Part shown: positions 9,115-27,228 of the stretch, one piece after another
Position numbering within the stretch: position 1 is the first letter of the stretch
Layout: each line of letters begins with the position of its first letter
Source of the DNA: Bacteroidales bacterium
GTDB lineage: Bacteria; Bacteroidota; Bacteroidia; Bacteroidales; UBA4417
Reading direction: 5' to 3'
Length of the DNA: 27,228 nt
NCBI GenBank assembly: GCA_038250985.1
Contig: JBBSBT010000001.1
Coordinates: 1 to 27,228, forward strand
Notes under the pieces: model-generated
What the model saw: the letters and a program-made list of their open reading frames with translations, nothing else
The model's database searches: none
What the model was told of the DNA's origin: nothing
Program-made: the position numbers and the translations under genes

Positions 9115-9336
9115 AAAAGGGGATAAAGAATATCCGACCCCTCTGCTCCTTGCCCTCTGCTCTATGCTGTGCCTTGCGTCTTCCCTTTTCCCCATCGAAA
9201 TTGCAAAAGCAATTTCTCTCCCCTGAATTTTGAAATTATCCTTCTTTCAGAATTGGATCATTTCAGCAAAAGGGGATAAAGAATATCCGACCCCTCTGCT
9301 CCTTGCCCTCTGCTCTATGCTGTGCCTTGCGTCTTC
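9115..9336 (+). repeat. Tandem direct repeat, 153-bp period
   Basis: 69 bp identical at 9115-9183 and 9268-9336 (aaaaggggataaagaatatccgacccctctgctcc...gcgtcttc). Confidence 0.9.
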
Positions 9337-9410
9337 TCTTCCCCCTCGAATTTGTGAGTCCGCCCACCAGCATCGTGAGGAATGTTAGGCCTAAAAACGC
9401 CGCATTTTTG

Positions 9411-12160: not shown

Positions 12161-12180
12161 GGGCTGTGAGCCTTCCCTTC

Positions 12181-12336
12181 CTTTTCCCCTTCGAAATTGC
12201 AAAAAAGCAATTTCTCTCCTACTTCGGCTACTTCGACGAATGCTCAGCACAAGTAGCGCTCAGCACACCGCCTGAATTTTGAAATGATCCTTCTTTCAGA
12301 ATTTGATCATTTCAGCAAAAAGGGGATAAAGAATAT
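12181..12336 (+). repeat. Third, diverged copy of the 9.1-kb repeat carrying a 51-bp REP-like insertion
   Basis: Matches 9185-9287 (cttttcccc.tcgaaattgcaaaa...cctgaattttgaaat.atccttctttcagaatt.gatcatttcagcaaaaggggataaagaatat) with extra sequence at 12220-12270. Confidence 0.85.
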
Positions 12337-12364
12337 TATGCGGGATAAAGAGAAATTTGCAATT

Positions 12365-12945: not shown

Positions 12946-13589
12946 GATTACTCCACATTACAATGTACTTGTCCTTGATGCGCGCTATAAGCTGCCACGA
13001 CACATGCACTCAAACGTGTCTGTCTTGAATCGCCCTTTTAAAAAAGAGTGAATGCGGCGTAAATGATGGAAGACTTTGAATATATAATGAGGATCTCCGT
13101 CTCCAGATCCGAAAGATTGAAATCAACAGATGATTTTGTCGAAGGGACATCGCTCACTGCTTCGACGAAAGAATGATCGGGATTATGAAATGATTTAGTT
13201 TACTTTCCTTGTTTTGCTATCCAAGCTCTATTTCAATATGTCATGACGGCACATTAAGATAAATCGTCTACTGTTGAAGTCATCATGATTGAATTTTTGT
13301 CGTAAACTTGTGCTTCTATAGCTATACGCAGGAGCGGATGCGGACGTCACATTGAATGAATCCAATTCCTGTAACAATTCCTCCTCCTGATGGGCAAGGA
13401 TTAATGGCAGCAAAATGTGCCCTAAATCCAAAGGATGATCATTCAAACGAACAGAATTAAAATAAAAAATGTGGAGACCAGACACCACAAAAAAAAAACG
13501 TGGCGTAAACCGAAAAGCCATACGACCAGGATTAAAATAATTGCCAGGATATGTTTACTAAATTCAATTTGACAGACAGGTTGCTATTT

Positions 13590-13699
13590 GTAGCGGCTAT
13601 GGCTTCGTGTTCTTCGCTGGCATTTTTGTGGTTAATCAAACATTGGTTCTCCGCAGAGAACCTCGGGGTGATATTCCTCGGGCTGACTCAATTAGGCGT
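13590..13699 (+). repeat. Eroded attC-like repeat upstream of the AraC cassette
   Basis: 13625-13655 matches 18684-18714 of the intact site at 27/31 nt; ends ATTAGGCGT (13691-13699), like GTTAGGCG at 23321. Confidence 0.6.
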
Positions 13700-13767
13700 A
13701 ATACTCAGACCGACCGTACCAACAATAACCGCAAACAAAATAGTAACTTTGGATTTTAAATTAAACT

Positions 13768-14631
13768 ATGGCGGACGGGATAAAAAAACTAAAATTTAAG
13801 CAAAATGCACCTATTCAAATTGAAGTCGTTCCTTTAGACAGTTTGACCAAAGTCAACAAACCGCATTTAATAACGCCACATCGTACCAATTTTTACCATG
13901 TTTTTCTCTTTGATAATTGCCGACCGACACACTACATCGATTTTGAAAAAATAAAAATTCAACCTTATACTTTATTGTTCATTGACAAAGATCGGGTACA
14001 TCAGTTTGACAAATTGCTCAACTATGAAGGACGGATACTCATTTTTACAGACGACTTTTTCCCGGACACTAAATTTTTACGTAGTTCTATATTGTTCAAT
14101 GACCTTTCACATCAAGCGACTATTAAACTAAATCAACAATCTTTAAAACGATTTATTTCGATTTGTGATAATATTACAGAAGAGTTGAGTATGCCAAATG
14201 ATGAGACAAAACCAATTGTACTCAAAAATCATTTACACAATTTTTTATTGTTAGCTGAAAGGGAAAAACGGAAACATGGTTTTGGAGATGCAAAAAAAGG
14301 TGCTGATCTTGACTATACTTTGCTATTCCGTGATTTATTAGAAGCTAATTTCACAAAACTGAAAGCTGTAAATGACTATTCTTCTCAACTTTTTATTTCA
14401 GAAAAGCGATTAGGACAGGCAACTTCAAAAATTTTAGGAAAAACGCCCAAAGAAATCATCAACGAAAGAATATTGCTGGAAGCTAAACGTCTTTTAGTCT
14501 ACAGCCATCTTACAATTAAAGAGATTGGACAAGATTTAGGCTTTGAAGACCCTGCTTAATTTGTACGCTACTTCAAAAAAAACATCGAAACTACGCCCGT
14601 AGAATTTCGACAAAAATACCTATCAAAATAA
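13768..14631 (+). pseudogene. AraC-family regulator with a premature stop in the second HTH
   Basis: Typical AraC C-terminus ...IGQDLGFEDPA*FVRYFKK...TPVEFRQK; TAA at 14557-14559 where Tyr is expected, frame continues to TAA 14629-14631. Own -7 box TAACTTTG at 13744-13751. Confidence 0.8.
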
Positions 14632-16411: not shown

Positions 16412-16450
16412 GTTTTTAAGTAAACTGTAACCACAAAAGAAAAAGCACAT

Positions 16451-16482
16451 ACGTCTAGCAGCGGTTTGGCAAAAGTGGCGGT
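16451..16482 (+). repeat. Left arm only of an attC-like site
   Basis: ctagcagcggtttggcaaaagtggcggt matches the left arm at 18638 (ctaacaggcatttggcaaaagcggcggt) and is then abruptly replaced by the WG-remnant element. Confidence 0.65.
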
Positions 16483-16483
16483 C

Positions 16484-16747
16484 GTTGATCAAAAGATAAC
16501 CCATGACGAAGTCCCGAAAGAACAAAACGATTGAGAAAAGCAGATGGTTACATTTTCATTTGTGACCAACTACAGCCGTTACCGGATTACGGGCTGTGTC
16601 TCATCAGGAAAACCCGGCATCGGATTTATTGAATTTAGAAAAAACGTGAATCTCTTTTCCCTCATGGGTACAAATGGCTACTCCGGGTTTTGTGACGGCG
16701 AGGGCCATATTTTTCTACCTAAGGAATGTGGGTGCATACAGGAGTAA
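16484..16747 (+). pseudogene. WG-repeat protein 3' remnant, copy 1
   Basis: NGYSGFCDGEGHIFLPKEC resembles the WG repeat (GxxGFIDxxGxxxIP); homologous to 21133-21432. Confidence 0.5.
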
Positions 16748-16878
16748 GGTGGTATGATCCAAATTAAATTTGAAAAAAATTGTTGCACCTGAAGATCTCT
16801 TCCTCTTGCAGCAATCCACCTCAGACGTCCATAATTTGAGTATATTTCGGGGACTGCAGGTGCAGGTATAAACTAGTT
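16610..16878 (+). repeat. Three-copy attI-like element, copy 1
   Basis: Aligns end to end with 21295-21562; core 16803-16872 then 3 nt then GTT 16876-16878. Confidence 0.85.
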
Positions 16879-16934
16879 AGCTACAAGCGTAAAAACGACC
16901 CTGTGAATTTGAACAGAAATATATAACAATAGAA

Positions 16935-18614
16935 ATGCGACATATTTTAAAATTTATTTTCTTTCTTCCGACAGCTTTTACCGCATCGGCTCAACAAACA
17001 AAACTTGCTGACAGTATTTATTCTATTCAAGACAGCATTTGCATTCCGACTAAAAGCGGAGTAAATATTTCCGCTATCATTGTTCGAAAAAAAGCAAATA
17101 TTCAACCTTTACCAGTTATTCTTTTCTACACGACTTACTATCAAGGCGCAGGTGACGACATTCTTGGGAAAAAGTCTGCAGATAGAGATTATGTTGGCGT
17201 AGTGGCTTATGCTCGTGGCATTCGGACAAATCTAAAAGATTATGCACCATACGAACATGAAGGAAATGATATTTACGATATTATTGATTGGATAAGTAAA
17301 CAGACATGGTGCAATGGAAAAGTTGCAATGTATGGTGGGAGTTATACAGGTTTTTCGCAGTGGGCAACGGCTAAATATTTGCACCCAGCATTGAAAACTA
17401 TTGTTCCGCAGGTAGCGGTGATGCCAGGATTTGACGCACCAATGGAAAACAACGTTCCTTATGGAAGTATTTTAAGTTGGGCTAACGACAATATTTATAA
17501 AAACAAACCTTATAATAGAGGTTTGGTTTTTGATTGGTTTGAAAAAGGCACTTCTTTTCGTAGTTTGGATAGCTTGGGCGGGCAACCAAATCCCATTTTT
17601 CAAAAGTGGCTTAACCACCCAGCTTATGATAATTATTGGCAATCATTAGTGCCAACACCAAATGAATATGCAAAAATCAATATTCCAATTTTAACAACAA
17701 CGGGCTACTATGACGGTTCGCAAATTGGAGCAATTCAGTATTTCAAATTGCATACTAAATACAACAAAAAGGGAAATCATTATTTTGTTATTGGACCTTA
17801 TGACCATTGGGGCGGACAAAGAAAAGCATCGCCAAACTTAATGGGCTACGACATTGACAGTGTTGCGAATATTAGTATGGAAAACTTGGCTTTTCAGTGG
17901 ATAGATTGGATTTTAAAAGACGGCAAAAAGCCCGACTTACTAAAAGGCAAAGTGAATTATGAAGTGATGGGAACTAACAAATGGAAACACACTGCTTCTT
18001 TAGACAAAATGAATAATGACACTTTGAAATTTTATCTAAACAACAATTTTACTCTTGATGATAAAAAGCCAATTGACAACCAATTTGTAAAGCAGACACT
18101 AGACTTTAAGGACAGAGAAACCCAAAACAATTATTTTACACCAACAATTGTTTTTGACACGTTAGATGCCAGTAATGGTTTGGTTTTTACGACTAAGCCA
18201 TTTGACAAGGAGTTTTCAATTAATGGTTCGTTTACTGGTAATTTGTATGCAACCATCAACAAAAAAGATATGGACGTTTCGATGGCTTTATACGAATTGA
18301 TGCCAAACGGTAAATATTTTTTTCTAACCCGTTACATTGGTCGTGCCAGTTACGCCAAAGACAATAGTAAAAGACAATTACTAAAACCTAACCAAAAAGA
18401 ATTTATTCCATTTACGAATACACGTCTTATCAGCAAGAAAATCAGCAAGGGGAGTAAATTGGCAATACTTTTAAATATCAACAAGCATCCATTTGAAATT
18501 ATAAATTATGGTTCAGGCAAAGACCCCAATGACGAAACAATTAATGATGCGAATGAGCCCTTGCAAATTAAGTGGCACAACGACAGTTTTATTAAAATCC
18601 CAATATGGAAATAA
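16935..18614 (+). CDS. CocE/NonD (peptidase S15-like) serine hydrolase, secreted; gene cassette
   Basis: Signal peptide ending SAQ, GKVAMYGGSYTG nucleophile elbow, GYYD and GPYDH, C-terminal jelly-roll region. Confidence 0.9.
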   Translation: MRHILKFIFFLPTAFTASAQQTKLADSIYSIQDSICIPTKSGVNISAIIVRKKANIQPLPVILFYTTYYQGAGDDILGKKSADRDYVGVVAYARGIRTNLKDYAPYEHEGNDIYDIIDWISKQTWCNGKVAMYGGSYTGFSQWATAKYLHPALKTIVPQVAVMPGFDAPMENNVPYGSILSWANDNIYKNKPYNRGLVFDWFEKGTSFRSLDSLGGQPNPIFQKWLNHPAYDNYWQSLVPTPNEYAKINIPILTTTGYYDGSQIGAIQYFKLHTKYNKKGNHYFVIGPYDHWGGQRKASPNLMGYDIDSVANISMENLAFQWIDWILKDGKKPDLLKGKVNYEVMGTNKWKHTASLDKMNNDTLKFYLNNNFTLDDKKPIDNQFVKQTLDFKDRETQNNYFTPTIVFDTLDASNGLVFTTKPFDKEFSINGSFTGNLYATINKKDMDVSMALYELMPNGKYFFLTRYIGRASYAKDNSKRQLLKPNQKEFIPFTNTRLISKKISKGSKLAILLNINKHPFEIINYGSGKDPNDETINDANEPLQIKWHNDSFIKIPIWK

Positions 18615-18634
18615 CTACTTAGAACAACGCCAGC

Positions 18635-18766
18635 AGCTAACAGGCATTTGGCAAAAGCGGCGGTTCAGCGCTCAGTAGACACCTTTGTGGTTAATCACAA
18701 TTTGGTTCTTCGCATCAACATTGGTGCTAAAAATCGCCACCTTCGCCAAGATGCAAACCGTTAGCC
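18635..18766 (+). repeat. Intact attC-like site (132 bp)
   Basis: AGCTAAC-aggcatttggcaaaagcggcg ... cgccaccttcgccaagatgcaaacc-GTTAGCC imperfect inverted repeat 20 nt after the stop. Confidence 0.85.
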
Positions 18767-18973
18767 CTACACGAAGTTGTAAACGAATACGGTAACGTCG
18801 CCGCCTCACCAATGCGATCTCTAGTCAAATGGATCGGGCGATATGGTTGTCTGTTCTACGATAACCAAAAACCGTCATTGAAACAACCCAAACCAGGGAT
18901 ATCACGTATCATTGTTATCCTTAGTTATTTTAGGACTACCACCCACTCACCTTCCCTTACTTAAAAAAGAAAA

Positions 18974-21100
18974 ATGAAATCTCTATTTATCACCCTCATG
19001 ATCCTTTGTTATGCCTCTGCAATGATGGCTCAACATGTTGAAGTGGCTGGCCAAATGCGTATTGACAACATGGATAAAGTCAATTCAGCAGACAGCGTCG
19101 TGGTGCGGCTTGCCGATGGCACACTGGCTGTCAGGGATGTCTCTTCGCTGACAAAAGAAACCGGTTGGACCCTTGTGGCGGATACAACATCAACAACAAA
19201 AATGGTAGGCATCGGGACTTCCTCTCCCAGTGCACCACTGCATCTCGTGGGCAACCAGCGAATTGAAGGACGCCTGGAGATCCTCAAAGCCATTGGTGAT
19301 TCTTCTGTCTTTATCGGGATTAATGCGGGCATGAATGACCTGGGCGGCAATGAGAATACGTTTGTCGGCCATGATGCAGGCAGGTACAACACCACTGGAT
19401 ATTACAACACCGGTGTTGGCGTAGCTGCCCTGCAAAATAATAGCACAGGAACTCAAAACACCGCAATCGGAGCAGGCGCCCTTTGGTACAACACTACAGG
19501 ATACAATAATACCGCAACCGGAACAGGCGCCCTTTTAGCCAACACTACAGGATCCGCAAACACCGCAACCGGAGTAGGCACCCTTGAGTATAACATCACA
19601 GGATATAATAACACCGCCAATGGTAACTTAGCACTTTATAACAACACATCCGGGTTCAACAATACAGCAACAGGAAAATTCACTCTTCTAAACAACACCA
19701 CAGGATATGGCAATACTGCAATAGGAGAAGCTGCCCTTTTTTCGGACACCACGGGATACTACAATACCGCAACCGGATTCAATGCACTTTATAACAATAC
19801 CACGGGATATGTAAACACTGCGATTGGAACCGGTTCACTTCAATCCAACACCACTGGAATTGCAAACACAGCAAGTGGAATTAATGCACTTGTTTTGAAC
19901 ACTACAGGAAATTATAACACAGCCAATGGATCAGCTGCGCTTTACGCCAACACCACAGGCAGGTCCAATGTAGGTATAGGTACGTTTGCATTATTCCAAA
20001 ATACGGATCGAAATAATCTTGTGGCTGTGGGGGATTCAGCGCTTTATCATAACGGCTTTGGCGCAACAGAAACTTACCATGCCATATCAAATACAGCGTT
20101 AGGGTCAAAAGCACTATACGCCAACACGACAGGATATCGCAACACCGCGGCAGGAAGCCGGGCCCTCAATGCAAACACAGAGGGATTCCACAACACGGCT
20201 TTCGGAAGCCAAGCCCTTTACGCCAATACGACAGGCTATCAAAACACAGCTACCGGCCTCTGGGTACTTTATAATTCCACGACAGGAAATGAAAATACAG
20301 GTACAGGAGCCGGGGCCCTTTTCGCTAACACCGAAGGCAATCTGAATACGGCAGTTGGAAGTGGAGCGCTATATGCCAATACAACGGGGTCAGAGAATAC
20401 GGCTACCGGAGGATATGCACTCTTTAATGATACGACCGGAATAGAAAACACAGCCCACGGATTTCATTCGCTTTATAACAACTCCTCAGGAAATCGAAAT
20501 ACCGCCATAGGCGATAGTTCGCTCTGGTCCAACGCTACCGGAACCGGTAACACAGGTCTGGGAAATGGCGCCGATGTTGCATCCGATAACCTAATCAATG
20601 CCACAGCTATTGGATACAAAGCAATGGTCGATGCCTCCAATAAAGTAAGAATTGGGAATGAAAATGTAACGGTCATCGAAGGACAGGTTCCATTCACGTC
20701 TTCTTCCGACCGGCGTTTGAAAGAAGATATTGTCCCTGTACGGCTTGGACTGGACTTTGTCAATGATCTGAACCCCGTACAATATCATCGCATCAACAAT
20801 CCAGATCCGGATCTGGAAATGGGCATTATTGCCCAGGACTTATTGACAGCTTTGGAGCTTCATGATGCAAAACAATCGGGGATGGTGAATCATAACGGGG
20901 ATGGGTATATGTCGGTGCGTTATAATGATTTGATCGCGCCCATGATAAAATCGATGCAGGAACTCAGTGATGAAAATGACAAGCTCAAAGCTGATCTTGA
21001 TTACTGTAAAACCAAATTGAAAAGATTGGACGATATAGAATCTGAACTTGCGCAGGTGAAAGCACTGTTGACTCCGGCAAGTTCAGTGGGTTCTGATTGA
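18974..21100 (+). CDS. Secreted fibre-like repeat protein with a C-terminal peptidase S74 intramolecular chaperone domain
   Basis: Signal peptide ending MAQ; about 24 units of a 17-aa xNTTGxxNTAxGxxALx repeat; SSDRRLKEDI...GLDFVNDLNPVQY S74 motif; C-terminal coiled coil. Confidence 0.85.
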   Translation: MKSLFITLMILCYASAMMAQHVEVAGQMRIDNMDKVNSADSVVVRLADGTLAVRDVSSLTKETGWTLVADTTSTTKMVGIGTSSPSAPLHLVGNQRIEGRLEILKAIGDSSVFIGINAGMNDLGGNENTFVGHDAGRYNTTGYYNTGVGVAALQNNSTGTQNTAIGAGALWYNTTGYNNTATGTGALLANTTGSANTATGVGTLEYNITGYNNTANGNLALYNNTSGFNNTATGKFTLLNNTTGYGNTAIGEAALFSDTTGYYNTATGFNALYNNTTGYVNTAIGTGSLQSNTTGIANTASGINALVLNTTGNYNTANGSAALYANTTGRSNVGIGTFALFQNTDRNNLVAVGDSALYHNGFGATETYHAISNTALGSKALYANTTGYRNTAAGSRALNANTEGFHNTAFGSQALYANTTGYQNTATGLWVLYNSTTGNENTGTGAGALFANTEGNLNTAVGSGALYANTTGSENTATGGYALFNDTTGIENTAHGFHSLYNNSSGNRNTAIGDSSLWSNATGTGNTGLGNGADVASDNLINATAIGYKAMVDASNKVRIGNENVTVIEGQVPFTSSSDRRLKEDIVPVRLGLDFVNDLNPVQYHRINNPDPDLEMGIIAQDLLTALELHDAKQSGMVNHNGDGYMSVRYNDLIAPMIKSMQELSDENDKLKADLDYCKTKLKRLDDIESELAQVKALLTPASSVGSD

Positions 21101-21132
21101 CTCACTGAACTAAAAGTCAAAATGGAAGTTGA

Positions 21133-21432
21133 ATTCTAAGTTCAGCATGCCGTTTAATTCTTGAGTGTGTCTACACAAAACTAACGGCGCTCCTTTCAGA
21201 CTTCGATGACGATGAGAAGGATGACAAATTCTATGTCGTGATCTCAGACTATAGCATCTCGGGATTGATGAACATGAACGGAAAGGTTCTCTTTAACCCT
21301 GGCTTCGGATTTATTGAATTTTGAAAAAACGTGAATCTGTTTTCTCTCATGGGTCCAAATGGCTACTCCGGATTTTGTGACGGAGAAGGCCATATCTTTC
21401 TACCTAAGGAATGCGTATGTATTCAAGAGTAA
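21133..21432 (+). pseudogene. WG-repeat protein 3' remnant, copy 2
   Basis: SGLMNMNGKVLFNP and NGYSGFCDGEGHIFLP WG-like units; in-frame TGA at 21322-21324 where copy 1 has AGA; no start codon for the upstream part. Confidence 0.55.
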
Positions 21433-21562
21433 TTTGGTGTGCTCCAAATGAAGTTTGAAGAATATTTTTGAACCTGGAGATTTCTTACTCTTGCAGCAAT
21501 CCACCTCAGAAGTTCATAATTTGAGTATATTTCGGGACTGCAGGTGCAGGTATAAACGAGTT
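21295..21562 (+). repeat. Three-copy attI-like element, copy 2
   Basis: Core 21488-21556, then 3 nt, then GTT 21560-21562. Confidence 0.85.
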
Positions 21563-21643
21563 GTGTGTCAGCTTGATTGACACTTTCATTAATCGGGTAC
21601 TCCATTAACTTTATAAACTAAATTGTTCACATTCAAAAAAAAA

Positions 21644-23092
21644 ATGAAAATACTTCATCTCTCTATTTTATCGCTATTATTCGGGTGCGAATGCATGGCA
21701 CAAAAAAGTGCGCTTGATAAAACACTAAATCCTTTAAAAAATGAAGCGGCAAATTATCTTCAATCCAATTACGGAAAGTATAAAACAATTGCAGTAAGCA
21801 TTTGGGATTATGCTGAAGCTGGTTTTAAAGAAAATAAAAGTTCATTATTATTACAAAATACGCTAAAGGAAAATGGATTTAATGTGGAAGCTGGTGTTGC
21901 CGGTATGCCTACCGCATTCGTAGCAACTTACGGAACCGGGAAGCCCGTAATAGGGATACTTGCTGAGTTTGATGCACTGCCTGGCTTTTCGCAAGACAGT
22001 TCTTACACTAAAACACCTATAGCTAATAAAAGTAATGGTCATGCCTGCGGGCATAATTTATTTGGAACAGGTTCTGTTGCTTCGGGTATAGCGATTAAAA
22101 AATTAATAGAAGAAGGCAAAATTATAGGCACTATAAAAGTATATGGATGCCCTGCAGAAGAAGGTGGTGATGGAAAAGTGTATATGGTAAGGGAAGGTTT
22201 ATTTAATAATGTAGATGTAGTTTTGCATTGGCATCCGGATGAACATAATGCTGTTACTTATACAAGTTCTTTGGCTATTAAAACTGCTAAGTTTAGATTT
22301 TACGGTATCTCTGCTCATGCTGCGGCTGCTCCTGACAAAGGACGCTCAGCTTTAGATGCTGTTGAGAGCATGGATTATATGGTAAATATGATGCGTGAGC
22401 ATATTCCACAGGAATCACGTATTCATTATGTAATTACTAATGGAGGAAAAGCCCCAAATGTTGTTCCTGACTTTTCAGAAGTTTTTTACTATGTAAGAAA
22501 TCCTGATAGAGCCATGGTAGACAGCTTATTTAAAAGAGTGGTAAAAGCTGCTGAAGGTGCTGCTTTGGGTACGGAAACAAAAATGGAATATGAAATTATC
22601 AGTGGCTCGCATGACTTACTAATTAATAAAACACTAGCTGATGTTATGCAAGCTAATTTAGAGAAAGTGGGTGGAGTAACTTATACTGCTGATGAAGTAA
22701 AATTTGGCAAACAGCTTCAGACAACATTTTTGGGCAATGTATCTTCCTTAGATTCTGCAGCTTTTGTAAAGCCATTACATTATGAAAAAAATCAAGGGTC
22801 AACTGATGTTGGTGATGTAAGCTATACAGTACCAACTGTTGGATTAGAAGCTGCAACGTGGGTACCAGGTACCTCAGCACATAGCTGGCAGGCGGTTGCC
22901 TGCGGCGGCAATGATATTGGCATGAAAGGAATGATGGTCGCTGCCAAAACAATTGCATATACCGCTATTGACCTATTTTTAAATCCTGCACTTATTATCA
23001 AAGCAAAAGAGGAGTTTAAGAAAATGAAAGGCGACTATCAATACAAGGCATTATTAGGTGACAGAAAGCCTGCATTAAATTATAGGGATTGA
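21644..23092 (+). CDS. M20-family amidohydrolase (AbgB-like), with signal peptide; gene cassette
   Basis: LAEFDALPG, GHACGHN, GCPAEEG, HWHP, GSTDVGDVS, HSWQ motifs; ATG 21644 after an A tract. Confidence 0.9.
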   Translation: MKILHLSILSLLFGCECMAQKSALDKTLNPLKNEAANYLQSNYGKYKTIAVSIWDYAEAGFKENKSSLLLQNTLKENGFNVEAGVAGMPTAFVATYGTGKPVIGILAEFDALPGFSQDSSYTKTPIANKSNGHACGHNLFGTGSVASGIAIKKLIEEGKIIGTIKVYGCPAEEGGDGKVYMVREGLFNNVDVVLHWHPDEHNAVTYTSSLAIKTAKFRFYGISAHAAAAPDKGRSALDAVESMDYMVNMMREHIPQESRIHYVITNGGKAPNVVPDFSEVFYYVRNPDRAMVDSLFKRVVKAAEGAALGTETKMEYEIISGSHDLLINKTLADVMQANLEKVGGVTYTADEVKFGKQLQTTFLGNVSSLDSAAFVKPLHYEKNQGSTDVGDVSYTVPTVGLEAATWVPGTSAHSWQAVACGGNDIGMKGMMVAAKTIAYTAIDLFLNPALIIKAKEEFKKMKGDYQYKALLGDRKPALNYRD

Positions 23093-23128
23093 CTTATCTC
23101 TTTTTATACATTATACACTAAAGCCGAA

Positions 23129-23327
23129 CACACAACAAAAGTATTGCTGCAATTGGGGCTTGACGGAAGAACATTCATCAGCTGTACATATCCAAGCTTT
23201 GGTTTCGGCGGACGGAATTCTGTTGAGCTTTTGTAGGTTAACTTCGGCTTTTGTTTATTAATTTAGCTTCAGTTCCGGGCAGACAGTTGGTCAATTCCCC
23301 AACTGCAGCAATACTCGAACGTTAGGC
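23129..23327 (+). repeat. Intact long attC-like site (about 199 bp)
   Basis: CACACAAC 23129-23136; arms agtattgctgcaattgggg (23140-23158) and ccccaactgcagcaatact (23297-23315) are complementary at 18/19; GTTAGGC 23321-23327. Confidence 0.85.
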
Positions 23328-23388
23328 GCAACCAAAGCTATATTTTATGATAAATCTCGAATCAGATGAACAATTAAAAGGACAATCG

Positions 23389-23589
23389 ATGAACAATCAA
23401 CGCAGGGTTCCTCGCATTTTCTTCGTGCTTACTTTCTTTGGGGTCATGAACCTTTTAGCCATGCTAAGTAGCCCCGCTTGGGCGAACATTCGAGGGGTAG
23501 ATGTTGTGCGCCTCATCGGCACAGGTATGTGCTTTGGAGGTGCAATCGTTTCTTTTGTGGCATACTTTCTAGACCGTCGCTCATCCTGA
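23389..23589 (+). CDS. Small two-helix membrane protein
   Basis: Two hydrophobic segments; ATG 23389 preceded by AAGGA; immediately after the attC GTT. Confidence 0.5.
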   Translation: MNNQRRVPRIFFVLTFFGVMNLLAMLSSPAWANIRGVDVVRLIGTGMCFGGAIVSFVAYFLDRRSS

Positions 23590-23799
23590 AGACCAGGAAT
23601 ACCACGCAATAATGTATTCCCAATTGTTCGAACAACCATTCAGATCCGCTGGTTTATAAAGATGCGGTGTTCGATAGTGTTGCAGGACAAGAAGTATGCA
23701 CTTGCAGAAAATTATTTCGCTTGTTGGTTTTATCAACGATGACTCTGTCTAGGCAACAAAAGTGTGATGTATCACAGGAAAGTCTTAACTTCACAGAGA

Positions 23800-24024
23800 A
23801 TGAAAACAATTAAAGAGCTTACGCCAATTATAGAGCGAGAAGGCGATGGTTATGTCGCGCTTTGTGCTGAACTTGATGTAGCAAGCCAAGGTGATACCAT
23901 TGAGGAAGCCCGCTCAAATCTCATTGAAGCTCTTGAACTTTTCTATGAAACAGCTTCAGAAGAAGAGATATCAAGAAGATTTCATGAAGAAGTGCTGATC
24001 ACTCGTGTCCAGGTGGCTATATAA
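23800..24024 (+). CDS. hicB: HicB-family antitoxin (short form)
   Basis: IIEREGDGYVALCAELDVASQGDTIEEARSNLIEALELF signature. Confidence 0.85.
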   Translation: MKTIKELTPIIEREGDGYVALCAELDVASQGDTIEEARSNLIEALELFYETASEEEISRRFHEEVLITRVQVAI

Positions 24025-24206
24025 TGAAACCCCTATCCGGGAAAGAAGTTTGTTTGATTTTAATGAAGCATGGTTTCATTCAAATATGACAGCGCGGAAG
24101 TCATATCATCATGCAAAAACAAATATAAGGTTCCACTACGACTATTCCTGTTCCAAATCATAAGGAATTGCGAACAGGAACACTGGGCTCAATAATGAGA
24201 AAATAA
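24024..24206 (+). pseudogene. hicA: HicA-family toxin pseudogene
   Basis: TAATG coupling to hicB; MKPLSGKEVCLILMKHGFIQI*QRGSHIIMQKQI*GSTTTIPVPNHKELRTGTLGSIMRK*; stops at 24087 and 24126; GSH and VP.H.EL..GTL motifs retained. Confidence 0.85.
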
Positions 24207-24223
24207 CAAAATAAAAAAAACGC

Positions 24224-26770
24224 ATGAAAATAGTTTCTTCAATTATACTCGTATGTGCCAGCATCTTAATGAATGCGTCACAATATGTACAGGCACAGTG
24301 CCCTATAGGTAACTCACAGATCATTGTCAATATTATTCCTGATACTTACCCGAATGAAACCAGTTGGGATATAAAAGATTCGTCAAACATTATTATTGCA
24401 AGCGGCACGACCAATAATGATACGATTTGCTATCCCACAGGCAACTTGCTTTATTTTACCATTTATGATTTATATGGGGATGGAATATGTTGCGGTGGTT
24501 TTGGGGATGGCTCTTACAACGTTTATGTTGATGGCAATTTAGTTGCATCAGGTGGTAAATTTGGTTTCAGTGAAACAACTACTTTTAATTACCCACCAGG
24601 TGAAATCAGCGCAATCCTGATCAACGATTTACAGCAGTTGATGGAGCATTGCAATAACGCTACCCTGCTTTCTGCGGCTCAAATCAATTCTTTATCCGCT
24701 GACATTCTTCAAAACCATTTTTATATCGCCGATGATCTTCCGGTCATTACAACAGCCTTTGATCTTATAAATTGTTATGAGGCCAATTCGGGTCCTGTTT
24801 TTTTAAATGCCACGACTACGGGTGGTTTCCCAAACGCGCCGGGAGCCCTTGATGGCTTTGAATATGACCGCGCGATTTTTACCATCCAGCAGGAATTGTT
24901 CAATGTCCTCTATGTCAAAAACAAAATATCGAAATACCGTACCTTCTTACAAGGCAGAAAATATCTGACTTCCAATTATTTTCCCGGTGCCTGTCCATTA
25001 CCCGTTGACTCCACTCAGGTATTCAATGCAACTGTCAATGCGTCGATGCCGACCGATTGGGGGAAGCCTACAGCATGGTCTACAACCCCTGCAAGAAGAC
25101 CTACTGGTTATTACCTGTCTCCCGGTTCGATTGGAAAAGTTACGGTGCCAAATGTCATGGTGAATGCAGGATATAAAATACTTGTAGGTGCACACCCCCT
25201 CATGAATAACACTATACATCCCACTGTTCAGAGGTTTTTCGGAATTTCTAATACGTACGACATCACAGATTCTGTAACCCTTATCGCAAATCCTTTTGGA
25301 GGAGGAATTTATATTATTACTCCTTACCAGGCTTCTGCGGGTTTGCAACAGATTGAATTAACCAATGTCGTTCCGGCACCGTTCTTTTCGGCAAAAAGTT
25401 TTGATCAGACCACCTTAAGCGAATGGCGAAATGTCCAAAGGCAAAATCCGGCACCCTGGGCAGATTTTGAATCTGAAAAATTCATGATGCAAGTGCCATC
25501 AAATTATATATACAACTATAGCGACCCTGTGACGCTGATGGCCGACTGGGATGCACGCATGGATGTGGTTTCAAATTTATTGGGGTATCCTCTGCTTCGC
25601 AATAATCCAGTTCTATATGTTATGCTGGACGTTCAAATTTTGCATGGTGCGTATGGTATTGGATTTCCTCAGATTAATAATCCCTACAGCCCATATGATG
25701 CGCAAGATGGGAATAGTCAAATGTGGTTTTTAGTACCGGGAGCCGCACATATGTGGGAATCTGAGTTCCACGAACTTGGACACGCCCAATCCATGGAAAA
25801 ATTTCCGGGTGAAGAAGAAGCCATTGTGAATCTACTCTCCGCAGCAATCTATAATGAGTTATATGGTATGGGCATCGACAGCGCCTTTGGTATGTCGTTT
25901 GACAATGAGTATTGGCGCGGTCGTGATCAGTCGGCAATTAACTGGATGATTACGCATAATTTCCGCATCGGGAACCCCATGGATATTTCCGATTCAACTA
26001 TAAATGAAGTCCGGTATCAGCACCGTGGGTATGCTAAATATGTTGAAATCGCTGCACTATTTGGCTGGGAAGCACTTGAGAATTATTACCATCAGGTAAA
26101 TCTCGATTACATTAATGGAGTGCCCCCGGGACCTCTGGGAAAAATTGATGATCGTATACTGAAATTATCAATTGCAGCGGGTGTAGACTTGCGTCCATTA
26201 ATTCATTTCTGGGGTGTGCATCCGCAGGATCCGGTTGCACTTGCTCAGGCAATAGAAAACAATAATTTACAGCCCTCGCCTCTCATTTGTAATCGCCTGG
26301 CGCATTATCAATCCATTATTCCAATGGACAGCGCTCAATTTAGCCAGCAAGCTCAGATTTACTTTAATGGCCCTGTACCTCCCGGTGGTAATCCGGATTA
26401 TGAAAATGGTTGGTATAACGTTTGGCTTCCTCGTTATAATCATTTACATGGAGACTCAGCAGTAGTTGCATTGCAAACCATTATCGACACCTACTTCCCT
26501 GATGGTTGTGCGGATATCACAGGGTCCCAGGAAATCATTGATGATAATACCGTTTCCGTCTTTCCCAATCCGAACAGTGGACAATTTACGATTTCACTTC
26601 AGGATGATAATGCGGAAATAATCGTTACGGACTTACTGGGTCACCCCATCCTTAAAACACAAGCAACGCAAAAGACAACAAACCTGCAACTTGACAACAA
26701 CGGAGTTTACATTATTTACATAAAGACAAAACGAGGAACAGCAACACAAAAAATAATTGTAGACCGCTAA
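24224..26770 (+). CDS. M60-like (enhancin/mucinase-type) metallopeptidase with a T9SS C-terminal sorting domain
   Basis: Signal peptide ending QAQ; RPTGYYLSPG, APWADFE, HELGH followed by EEE (HExxH...E); C-terminal VFPNP...GVYII T9SS CTD. Confidence 0.85.
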   Translation: MKIVSSIILVCASILMNASQYVQAQCPIGNSQIIVNIIPDTYPNETSWDIKDSSNIIIASGTTNNDTICYPTGNLLYFTIYDLYGDGICCGGFGDGSYNVYVDGNLVASGGKFGFSETTTFNYPPGEISAILINDLQQLMEHCNNATLLSAAQINSLSADILQNHFYIADDLPVITTAFDLINCYEANSGPVFLNATTTGGFPNAPGALDGFEYDRAIFTIQQELFNVLYVKNKISKYRTFLQGRKYLTSNYFPGACPLPVDSTQVFNATVNASMPTDWGKPTAWSTTPARRPTGYYLSPGSIGKVTVPNVMVNAGYKILVGAHPLMNNTIHPTVQRFFGISNTYDITDSVTLIANPFGGGIYIITPYQASAGLQQIELTNVVPAPFFSAKSFDQTTLSEWRNVQRQNPAPWADFESEKFMMQVPSNYIYNYSDPVTLMADWDARMDVVSNLLGYPLLRNNPVLYVMLDVQILHGAYGIGFPQINNPYSPYDAQDGNSQMWFLVPGAAHMWESEFHELGHAQSMEKFPGEEEAIVNLLSAAIYNELYGMGIDSAFGMSFDNEYWRGRDQSAINWMITHNFRIGNPMDISDSTINEVRYQHRGYAKYVEIAALFGWEALENYYHQVNLDYINGVPPGPLGKIDDRILKLSIAAGVDLRPLIHFWGVHPQDPVALAQAIENNNLQPSPLICNRLAHYQSIIPMDSAQFSQQAQIYFNGPVPPGGNPDYENGWYNVWLPRYNHLHGDSAVVALQTIIDTYFPDGCADITGSQEIIDDNTVSVFPNPNSGQFTISLQDDNAEIIVTDLLGHPILKTQATQKTTNLQLDNNGVYIIYIKTKRGTATQKIIVDR

Positions 26771-26855
26771 CGACCAGGGGAAAGAAGCCACAACGTCTCA
26801 TGACGCTGTTGTAAATTTCTCTTTTGGCGTAATGGCTGAATTATGACTGGTATGA

Positions 26856-27090
26856 GCTGAACGAAAGTAAACGAATGACGAAGCCCCGAAAGAGTAAATC
26901 GATTAAGAAGTGGGCCATATTTTTCTACATATAAAATGCGAGTGCATTCAGGAGTATGACACGGTGAACCAAATGAAGTTTGAAGATAATTTTTTTTGCA
27001 CCGGGAGATTTCTTCCTCTTGCAGCAATCCACCTCAGAAGTCCATAATTTGAGTATATTTCGGGACTGCAGGCGCAGGTATAAATAAGTT
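26856..27090 (+). repeat. Three-copy attI-like element, copy 3 (internally deleted)
   Basis: 26875-26909 matches 16503-16537 (30/35); 26912 onward matches 16702 onward; core 27016-27084, 3 nt, GTT 27088-27090. Confidence 0.85.
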
Positions 27091-27132
27091 AGTGGCAATA
27101 AAAGATTTTCGTCCTTTGGAAATTATATATCA

Positions 27133-27228
27133 ATGCATTACAGTTTACGTTTGACTATATTGCTCTATTCGTGCTTTGGCTGTCTCACAAGTAGTAAGAC
27201 GGCAAAATATCAGATTGGTGGCACAAAT
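27133..27228 (+). CDS. 5' end of a probable secreted or lipoprotein cassette gene, runs off the window
   Basis: ATG 27133 open to the window end: MHYSLRLTILLYSCFGCLTSSKTAKYQIGGTN; 42 nt after the GTT of copy 3. Confidence 0.45.
   Translation, partial: MHYSLRLTILLYSCFGCLTSSKTAKYQIGGTN

Follow-up and report, generated by a model that had tools for sequence, protein, structure and literature searches.

Candidate attI-type sites repeated inside a chromosomal cassette array of a sediment Bacteroidota

Where can a cassette enter an array of cassettes, and what can serve as the boundary between two of them? In the usual picture of integrons, an array has a single entry site and a single promoter, both at its head, and to our knowledge attI copies in the interior have been reported only as rare exceptions from clinical class 1/2 integrons. 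The question is raised by contig JBBSBT010000001.1 of an environmental sediment Bacteroidota, whose chromosomal cassette array we analyzed over a stretch of 27,228 nucleotides (nt), the window, in an assembly of 701 contigs that is 82% complete. One repeat stands in this array in front of several different cassettes, and most unit boundaries of the array are such candidate attI-type sites, not attCs. We consider it rather probable that, in this repeat, an attI-type site (double-strand, non-hairpin) belonging to the integron-like cassette system of the genus has been copied into the array interior.

Repeat copies and cassette junctions

The window carries the repeat as three direct copies (positions 16780–16877, 21465–21562, and 26993–27090), the last 98 nt of which are 91–93% identical to one another. 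Each copy closes with three variable bases and GTT (the G at 16876, 21560, and 27088), and past GTT the identity is 18–41%. An initial annotation of this DNA had described a 69–70-nt core at 16803, 21488, and 27016, followed by three variable nt, GTT, and divergence; this was correct, and the core lies inside the 98-nt copies, but the true length is greater and runs into a gene for a WG-repeat protein. At its full length of ∼180–430 nt, the repeat consists of the 3' end of the WG-repeat gene and ∼128 nt of non-coding DNA; it ends in nnnG/TT (the slash marking the crossover) and reads GCAGGTATAAAnnnGTT before the TT. It reaches upstream to ∼16527/16610 in copy 1, to 21149 in copy 2, and to ∼26875 in copy 3. 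Copy 2 retains 284 nt of WG-gene DNA with an in-frame stop, copy 1 retains ∼140–220 nt, and copy 3, which has an internal deletion, retains ∼45 nt of WG coding DNA and a short piece found in copy 1 as well. Among copies 1–3, identity is 66–75% in the 32-nt spacer that follows the stop codon of the WG gene, compared with 91–93% in the 98-nt block.

Following up a related small open reading frame (ORF), we came upon L040, a contig of 3.8 kb from a different public assembly. Over its first 141 nt, L040 matches window positions 27088–27228 at 100% identity, and its first base is the very G of the third GTT, indicating that it continues the array. In order, L040 contains the WG-repeat lipoprotein gene, attC_E, an intact WG gene of 400 amino acids with copy 4, a Gp49/HTH toxin-antitoxin cassette, and, at the contig end, a WG remnant (the fifth, truncated at its 5' side) that leads into copy 5. 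This brings the total to at least five copies within ∼14.5 kb (three in the window and two in L040). The initial annotation had proposed that further copies be compared for different downstream genes, and the L040 copies, too, are followed by different sequences from GTT onward. Searches elsewhere gave no further copy: none besides the three in the window was found in all 701 contigs of the own genome, nothing was found in 44 congeners and a 60-genome draw of relatives, and exact 18–22-mers of the repeat had chance matches only in JGI metagenomes and GTDB genomes. No Rfam family covers the repeat, and exact-protein look-ups of the remnant ORF and of HicB returned no match.

The bases behind the repeat are complementary to the left ends (R'' boxes) of the attCs that the following cassettes carry. 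The start of cassette A, behind copy 1, pairs with the left end of its own attC at 8/9 positions (GTTAGCT versus AGCTAAC, 7/7), and the start of cassette C behind copy 2, GTTGTGTGT, pairs with the left end of attC_C, ACACACAAC, at 9/9. The left box of attC_E, TGCCACTAAC, is a 10/10 complement of the first bases of cassette E behind copy 3, and the value for the cassette behind copy 4 is 10/12. Because the following cassettes carry complementary R'' boxes, the junctions at the repeat behave as integron-type G/TT crossovers. The initial annotation had proposed GTT as the crossover of copies 1 and 2, and this now extends to copies 3 and 4. In copies 1–4 we thus find what characterizes an attI, namely a non-palindromic site whose right end is the cassettes' G/TT crossover.

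The repeat closes a gene unit on its 3' side, where an attC would lie, and it could conceivably be an atypical attC of the WG cassette, with its left arm remote, situated within the coding region, or replaced by protein-assisted bending. In keeping with this, RNAalifold gives a weak long-range stem, and the smallest retained unit is ∼180 nt (copy 3). However, several copies break the pairs of this stem, and no pair is supported by compensatory changes (0 compensatory pairs in the five-copy alignment; covariation term, +1.4). When folded as DNA on either strand, the repeat gave z values of −0.5 to +0.8, no better than shuffled sequence, compared with −1.6 for the true attC at 18633–18766, and folding as DNA or RNA of single copies and of 3- and 5-copy consensus sequences revealed no structure. 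No complementary upstream AAC box (RYYYAAC) matching the unit start was found for any of the five copies by the same scans that found the array's true attCs, and the repeat has no similarity to true attC arms. Thus, of the attributes of an attC, the repeat has GTT and lacks the inverted R''/R' pair and the single-strand hairpin, in agreement with the initial annotation, which had regarded the sites as something other than attC hairpins and proposed the folding. We consider the atypical-attC explanation very unlikely. The canonical attCs of the array are attC_A, attC_C, and attC_E, the last with a hairpin z of −2 to −2.75. Their word depth is 4–40x the local baseline in four sediment runs, as expected of large attC families; that of attC_A is ∼2400, pointing to such a family. 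The word TGCAGCAAT, common to the repeat and attC_C, was at chance level.

Recombinase-proximal sites in congeners

In the complete congener G005, both arrays start beside a co-oriented tyrosine recombinase gene, and in G005, G015, and G067 the arrays abut a co-oriented tyrosine recombinase of 460–610 amino acids. The first cassette of G005 begins with GTTATGCACC, 170 nt past the recombinase stop codon, and its attC begins with GGTGCATAAC (R'' 10/10). Relatives of the array recombinase occur in 29 of the 44 congeners, often at contig ends. The best NCBIfam match of the array recombinases is integrase_gron, with 197–207 bits (cut-off 265), and the archaeal XerA/integron-integrase model is also among their best matches; integrase_gron is matched in two stretches, skipping model positions ∼180–237, the IntI-specific region. 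As a classical IntI we counted a protein above the TIGR02249 cut-off of 265 with the IntI-specific insertion of ∼35 amino acids. Judged by these matches, the recombinase of the genus' array system is not a classical IntI, and because it falls below the IntI cut-off, a search relying on that model would miss it. No classical IntI was found in the genus at E ≤ 1e-40, and of 301 genomes drawn from the order, 5 had a true IntI. The own genome also has a second attC family on contigs C48 (3030–3161 and 3661–3810), C160, C201, C71, and C276. This family is homogeneous, ∼125 nt long, and present in 38 of the 44 congeners (including G005, G014, and G066), with as many as 26 listed matches in one genome.

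The terminal 14-mer of the repeat, TATAAACTAGTTAG, recurs at such recombinase loci. Within 200 nt past the recombinase stop it was present with at most 2 mismatches at 6 of 26 same-genus loci, always 28–121 nt after the stop, compared with 0.02% of 5000 random 200-nt pieces. At two of the 26 loci (G026:C288 and G020:C551) the match is exact, and the terminal TATAAACTAGTTAG of copy 1 is identical to the recombinase-proximal sites L117 and L105. When right-aligned on G/TT, 12 recombinase-proximal sites and the five copies share ...AGG.TATAnAnnA followed by GTTR, the motif of such ends being AGG.TATAnAnnAGTT. Because the 14-mer recurs after recombinase stops at this rate over the null, the repeat appears to end in an attI-type site. 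The attI-like character claimed in the initial annotation is borne out by the non-hairpin nature of the sites, by the crossover, and by the end shared with recombinase-proximal sites, but the shared part is only 14–18 nt. Likewise, its suggestion that a copy be sought beside a tyrosine recombinase led to the terminal 14-mer, not to a whole copy. An end-motif look-alike on contig C30 was rejected, as it belongs to an ordinary divergent promoter region.

The box TAnnTTTG is the −7 promoter box of Bacteroidota. It is present in 10 of the 26 recombinase-proximal regions, compared with 7.6% of random pieces, and the repeat has TATATTTC, one mismatch from this box and invariant in all five copies. 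This lends indirect support to the idea of the initial annotation that a −7-like box in the repeat could act as a cassette promoter.

The WG-repeat gene unit and the origin of the copies

The unit made up of the WG gene and the site is intact once (in L040, 400 amino acids) and 5'-truncated at least four times, and the site is always kept. All four truncation points are different (L040 positions 1975, 2014, ∼2160, and 2249). The remnant behind which the initial annotation had placed the copies is thus the 3' end of the WG gene, remnant 1 being the C-terminal 85 amino acids of WG-repeat proteins of 373–400 amino acids, and instead of the free-standing platform that had been proposed, the sites terminate a WG-gene unit on its 3' side. 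At copies 1 and 5, the attC that precedes the repeat has lost its right arm. Upstream of copy 1, only R'' and L'' are left (16448–16482), with WG remnant 1 next; a search for a pairing partner of this left arm found none, and metagenome contigs connect position 16482 to the middle of attC_A-type sites. Three other candidates were rejected: truncation by secondary-site crossover at GTT is unsupported, as no truncation point is at GTT; the CTAAC in copy 2, considered as an R'' relic, belongs to the WG coding sequence; and a minus-strand ORF across the repeat has no conserved start, a stop in copy 2, and mostly non-synonymous changes. In another sample, a Logan contig of 942 nt (L029) carries the orthologue of the toxin-antitoxin cassette end and of WG remnant 5. 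Its WG remnant is cut on the 3' side and is without the attI-type block, so units without the site exist too.

The block could instead be the WG gene's own 3' flank, kept for a promoter or terminator needed by the next gene and unrecognized by any recombinase, with GTT as the relic of a truncated attC. The invariance of the near −7 box in the five copies would suit this explanation, as would the decay of the array (ATT and GTA as degenerate R' triplets, and an attC of which just the left arm remains); truncated attCs are also a known class of unusual cassette (PMC12901181). However, the five copies are followed by five different sequences from the exact GTT, four of them with complementary R'', and different cassettes at an exact GTT with complementary R'' require repeated crossovers at the junction. 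In addition, the end of the block is that of the congeners' recombinase-proximal sites, and WG orthologues at 45–65% amino acid identity in other metagenomes (L030, L054, and L056) have no downstream block, which argues that the site is not an old 3' flank of the WG gene. We therefore regard a 3' flank as an unlikely source of the block.

The 5'-truncated copies with a constant 3' end resemble the products of one-ended transposition, and the repeat could be the fixed end of another mobile element of the one-ended rolling-circle or insertion sequence (IS) type. However, no transposase or HUH gene was found in or near the units, and the junctions follow the R'/R'' logic of attCs. An assembly join across the repeat might likewise create such copies, and two observations would fit it: in run X1, the depth is 62–75 up to 21225 and ∼38 from 21533 on, a step at copy 2, and runs X1 and X2 contain hybrid contigs. 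Against a join, a zero-mismatch Logan contig runs across copy 1 and its junction (16639–17508), and the independent assembly L040 has two more copies and abuts the copy-3 junction. The hybrid contigs indicate a further copy with the HicB cassette behind it, and thus more copies or strain variants. A mobile-element end and an assembly join, taken as one alternative, are highly improbable.

For an attI-type site copied into the array interior, we propose the following. The normal layout in congeners is a gene for an IntI-related tyrosine recombinase of 460–590 amino acids, 30–170 nt of attI on the same strand, and then attC cassettes; this attI often ends in ...AGG.TATAnAnnA before GTT and often carries a TAnnTTTG box. 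Here, ∼128 nt with this ending stand behind a WG gene, and a different cassette starts at each G/TT. By a first route, a cassette may have been excised imprecisely together with upstream attI-side DNA of variable length and reinserted through an attI-type site. By a second, the unit of WG gene and site may have been inserted or duplicated repeatedly and then shortened by 5' deletions, often ending in the neighbouring attC hairpin. Both routes would fit the data, which do not separate them, and by either one the site would have recombined several times. A recombinase acting in trans, or since lost, would have inserted or exchanged cassettes at each copy, and each copy may supply a putative promoter for the cassette behind it. 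A tentative extension, which we think possible but doubtful, is that cassette-borne attI modules are kept by selection as a regular component of a Bacteroidota cassette system that works with a non-IntI recombinase, each module serving as a portable entry site and promoter. If so, capture would have more places, cassettes deep in the array could be transcribed, and the array would not depend on a single attI/Pc beside the recombinase.

Several observations weigh against an attI-type origin of the repeat. What it shares with recombinase-proximal sites is confined to its last 14–18 nt, and its remaining ∼80 conserved nt had no match in anything searched. With the attI sides of four classical intI loci from its order, the repeat has only 10–11-mers in common (p 0.01–0.07), and tblastx of the window and L040 against the classical intI loci of the order revealed no intI remnant. 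The short end motif is common genome-wide, with 34 matches compared with 22 expected for a relaxed pattern, and at the congener loci of the TATAAAC type the contigs are too short for R'' proof that GTT is the boundary of the first cassette. None of the copies is directly beside a recombinase gene, as an attI would be. No tyrosine recombinase was found in the 27-kb window, as the initial annotation had reported, or in the 3.8-kb L040; the own assembly has only XerC/D-like genes and one 430-amino-acid integrase, all on other contigs, and the array recombinase family was not found in this assembly at its 82% completeness. The position of the truncation points away from GTT means that IntI-type secondary-site crossovers are not obviously their origin. 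The WG coding remnant is conserved about as well as the site (88–93%), so no selection specific to the site can be claimed. The array decay also counts here (the triplet ATT in L040, GTA at 26836, and the attC left arm), as does the depth step in X1, by which the contig may join two strains at copy 2 or reflect strain heterogeneity.

Known systems and further features of the array

Cassettes of the deltaattI type were reportedly listed by Partridge in 2009 as type ii unusual cassettes. According to Gonzales Machuca et al. 2026 (PMC12901181), such cassettes of class 1/2 integrons have a piece of attI, 8 to 238 nt long, or the whole attI in place of attC; the rearrangement often falls at R'', and the units can still be excised and inserted by IntI1. 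Arrays that contain attI or deltaattI copies in their interior have been described and shown to be functional (PMC12901181). In view of these reports, the statement in the initial annotation that known integrons have one attI was too strong, and its idea of a wholly unprecedented multi-attI platform has to be tempered. By analogy, the multi-site array corresponds, in a natural setting, to the rare cassettes of clinical integrons that end in attI.

As in deltaattI-type cassettes, attC here appears to be replaced by attI-type DNA of variable length ending at the crossover G, the 3' end being common to the copies and the 5' limit taking four different positions; R'' or the left arm may be all that is left of the original attC; and several attI-type sites lie in one array among canonical attCs. 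The retained DNA extends to −8 to −238 in the clinical cases and to ∼−180 to at least −1700 here. As to descent from the attI of the same or a known integron, the end motif matches the congeners' sites, and the other ∼80 conserved nt had no match. Unlike the clinical cases, the array is a chromosomal one of an environmental Bacteroidota, the genus recombinase is non-classical and not in cis, the retained flank is a passenger WG-repeat gene and not intI-proximal DNA, and at least five copies lie in ∼14.5 kb. The clinical deltaattI sites are proven IntI1 substrates.

The repeat resembles attI1 and attI2 in being non-palindromic and, putatively, double-strand, with crossover at G/TT and a cassette promoter (putative here) in or near the site. 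The A-rich run before GTT is AAACAAAGTT in attI1, AATAAAATGTT in attI2 (PMC12901181), and TATAAACnAGTT in the repeat. In contrast to attI1 and attI2, the repeat is not adjacent to a recombinase gene, and it has no homology to them beyond the A-rich run. The array also resembles clusters of attC sites lacking integrases (CALIN) and sedentary chromosomal integrons (Cury et al. 2016, PMC4889954): it has at least two attCs, namely attC_A, attC_C, and attC_E as well as degenerate ones, in co-oriented cassettes with no integrase gene nearby, toxin-antitoxin cassettes, and attC families common to congeners. It differs from them in that most unit boundaries are not attCs and in that the genus recombinase is below the IntI cut-off and co-oriented with the cassettes. 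With attG (cited in PMC12901181) the repeat shares the putative nature of a double-strand site that looks like neither attC nor attI and has cassettes outside the canonical position. However, attG sites are scattered single genomic targets, whereas here a single sequence recurs within one array, with an end that agrees with true recombinase-proximal sites.

If the sites are active, capture and expression would not be confined to the first position, and cassettes would be mobile without a hairpin of their own. The comparison also yields a concrete candidate attI-end sequence for the Bacteroidota system, ...AGG.TATAnAnnA before GTT with an upstream TAnnTTTG box, which makes recombination assays and systematic site searches possible. 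The coordinates of the array features are given in Table I.

Table I. Coordinates of array features, in window positions
Feature	Position	Strand	Basis
attC left arm only (R''-like ACGTCTAGC + L''), attC_A family	16448–16482	+	82% identity over 28 nt to arm 18637–18664
WG-repeat gene remnant 1 (3' end, upstream decayed)	16527–16747	+	87–93% to intact L040 WG gene from 16610
Candidate attI-type site, copy 1	16748–16878	+	Variable 32-nt spacer, conserved 98-nt block, and GTT 16876–16878
Cassette A: secreted S15-family peptidase gene 16935–18614 and attC_A 18633–18766 (GTT at 18760)	16876–18762	+	Pfam, hairpin
Unit B: 708-amino-acid repeat protein 18974–21100 and small hairpin 21105–21145	18760–21148	+	Pfam Peptidase_S74, 51-nt repeats, fold
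WG-repeat gene remnant 2, in-frame TGA 21322–21324	21149–21432	+	89% to intact WG gene from L040 position 2014; 90% to L029
Candidate attI-type site, copy 2, GTT 21560–21562	21433–21562	+	Repeat alignment
Cassette C: M20/AbgB-like amidohydrolase 21623–23092 and attC_C 23128–23327 (GTT at 23321)	21560–23323	+	Pfam, arm duplex −21.8 kcal/mol
Unit D: 80-amino-acid ORF, HicB-like gene (boundary 23766), and M60 peptidase with type IX secretion system (T9SS) tail 24224–26770	23321–26874	+	Pfam
Degenerate attC-like hairpin ending GTA (unit D)	26764–26838	+	Fold
WG remnant 3, internal deletion: upstream piece common with copy 1 and last ∼45 coding bases	26875–26956	+	Alignment
Candidate attI-type site, copy 3, GTT 27088–27090	26957–27090	+	Alignment; L040 begins at this G
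Cassette E start, WG-repeat lipoprotein gene from 27134	27088–27228	+	Continues in L040

The protein of unit B contains at least 16 tandem 51-nt (17-amino-acid) repeats within 19406–20490, and its C terminus is a Peptidase_S74 (endosialidase chaperone) domain; it resembles a phage tail-fibre or adhesin module. The gene of cassette C has homologues with 83–87% nucleotide identity in L031, L032, and L033, which align solely over 21578–23131, so that the homology begins 16 nt past GTT and ends at the R'' box. At the place of the cassette C R'', L033 has ACACACAAT as its native 3' flank, a possible trace of cassette formation. Unit D is probably several fused cassettes. Contigs of the unrelated runs X1 and X7 show a homology break at exactly 23766, upstream of the HicB-like gene; the depth of the HicB region is ∼2x that of its neighbours in X1, and one X1/X2 contig links a repeat copy to 23766. 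A small HicB cassette thus seems to exist in two contexts.

Farther upstream in the window, the Rfam DUF805 RNA motif (RF03081) is present on the plus strand at 13466–13536, with 63.3 bits (gathering score, 51.1). Closely downstream is an 82-amino-acid ORF (13551–13799), the 3' part of which overlaps an eroded attC-like segment (13625–13655) resembling the centre of attC_A. Non-coding repeats are found at 9115–9345, upstream of a Fic gene, and at 12180–12350, upstream of a ParD/ParE pair. They include a 78-nt unit duplicated 153 nt apart and a block of ∼80 nt, 94% common to the Fic and ParD/ParE promoter regions, that ends in AAAAGGGGATAAAGAATAT.

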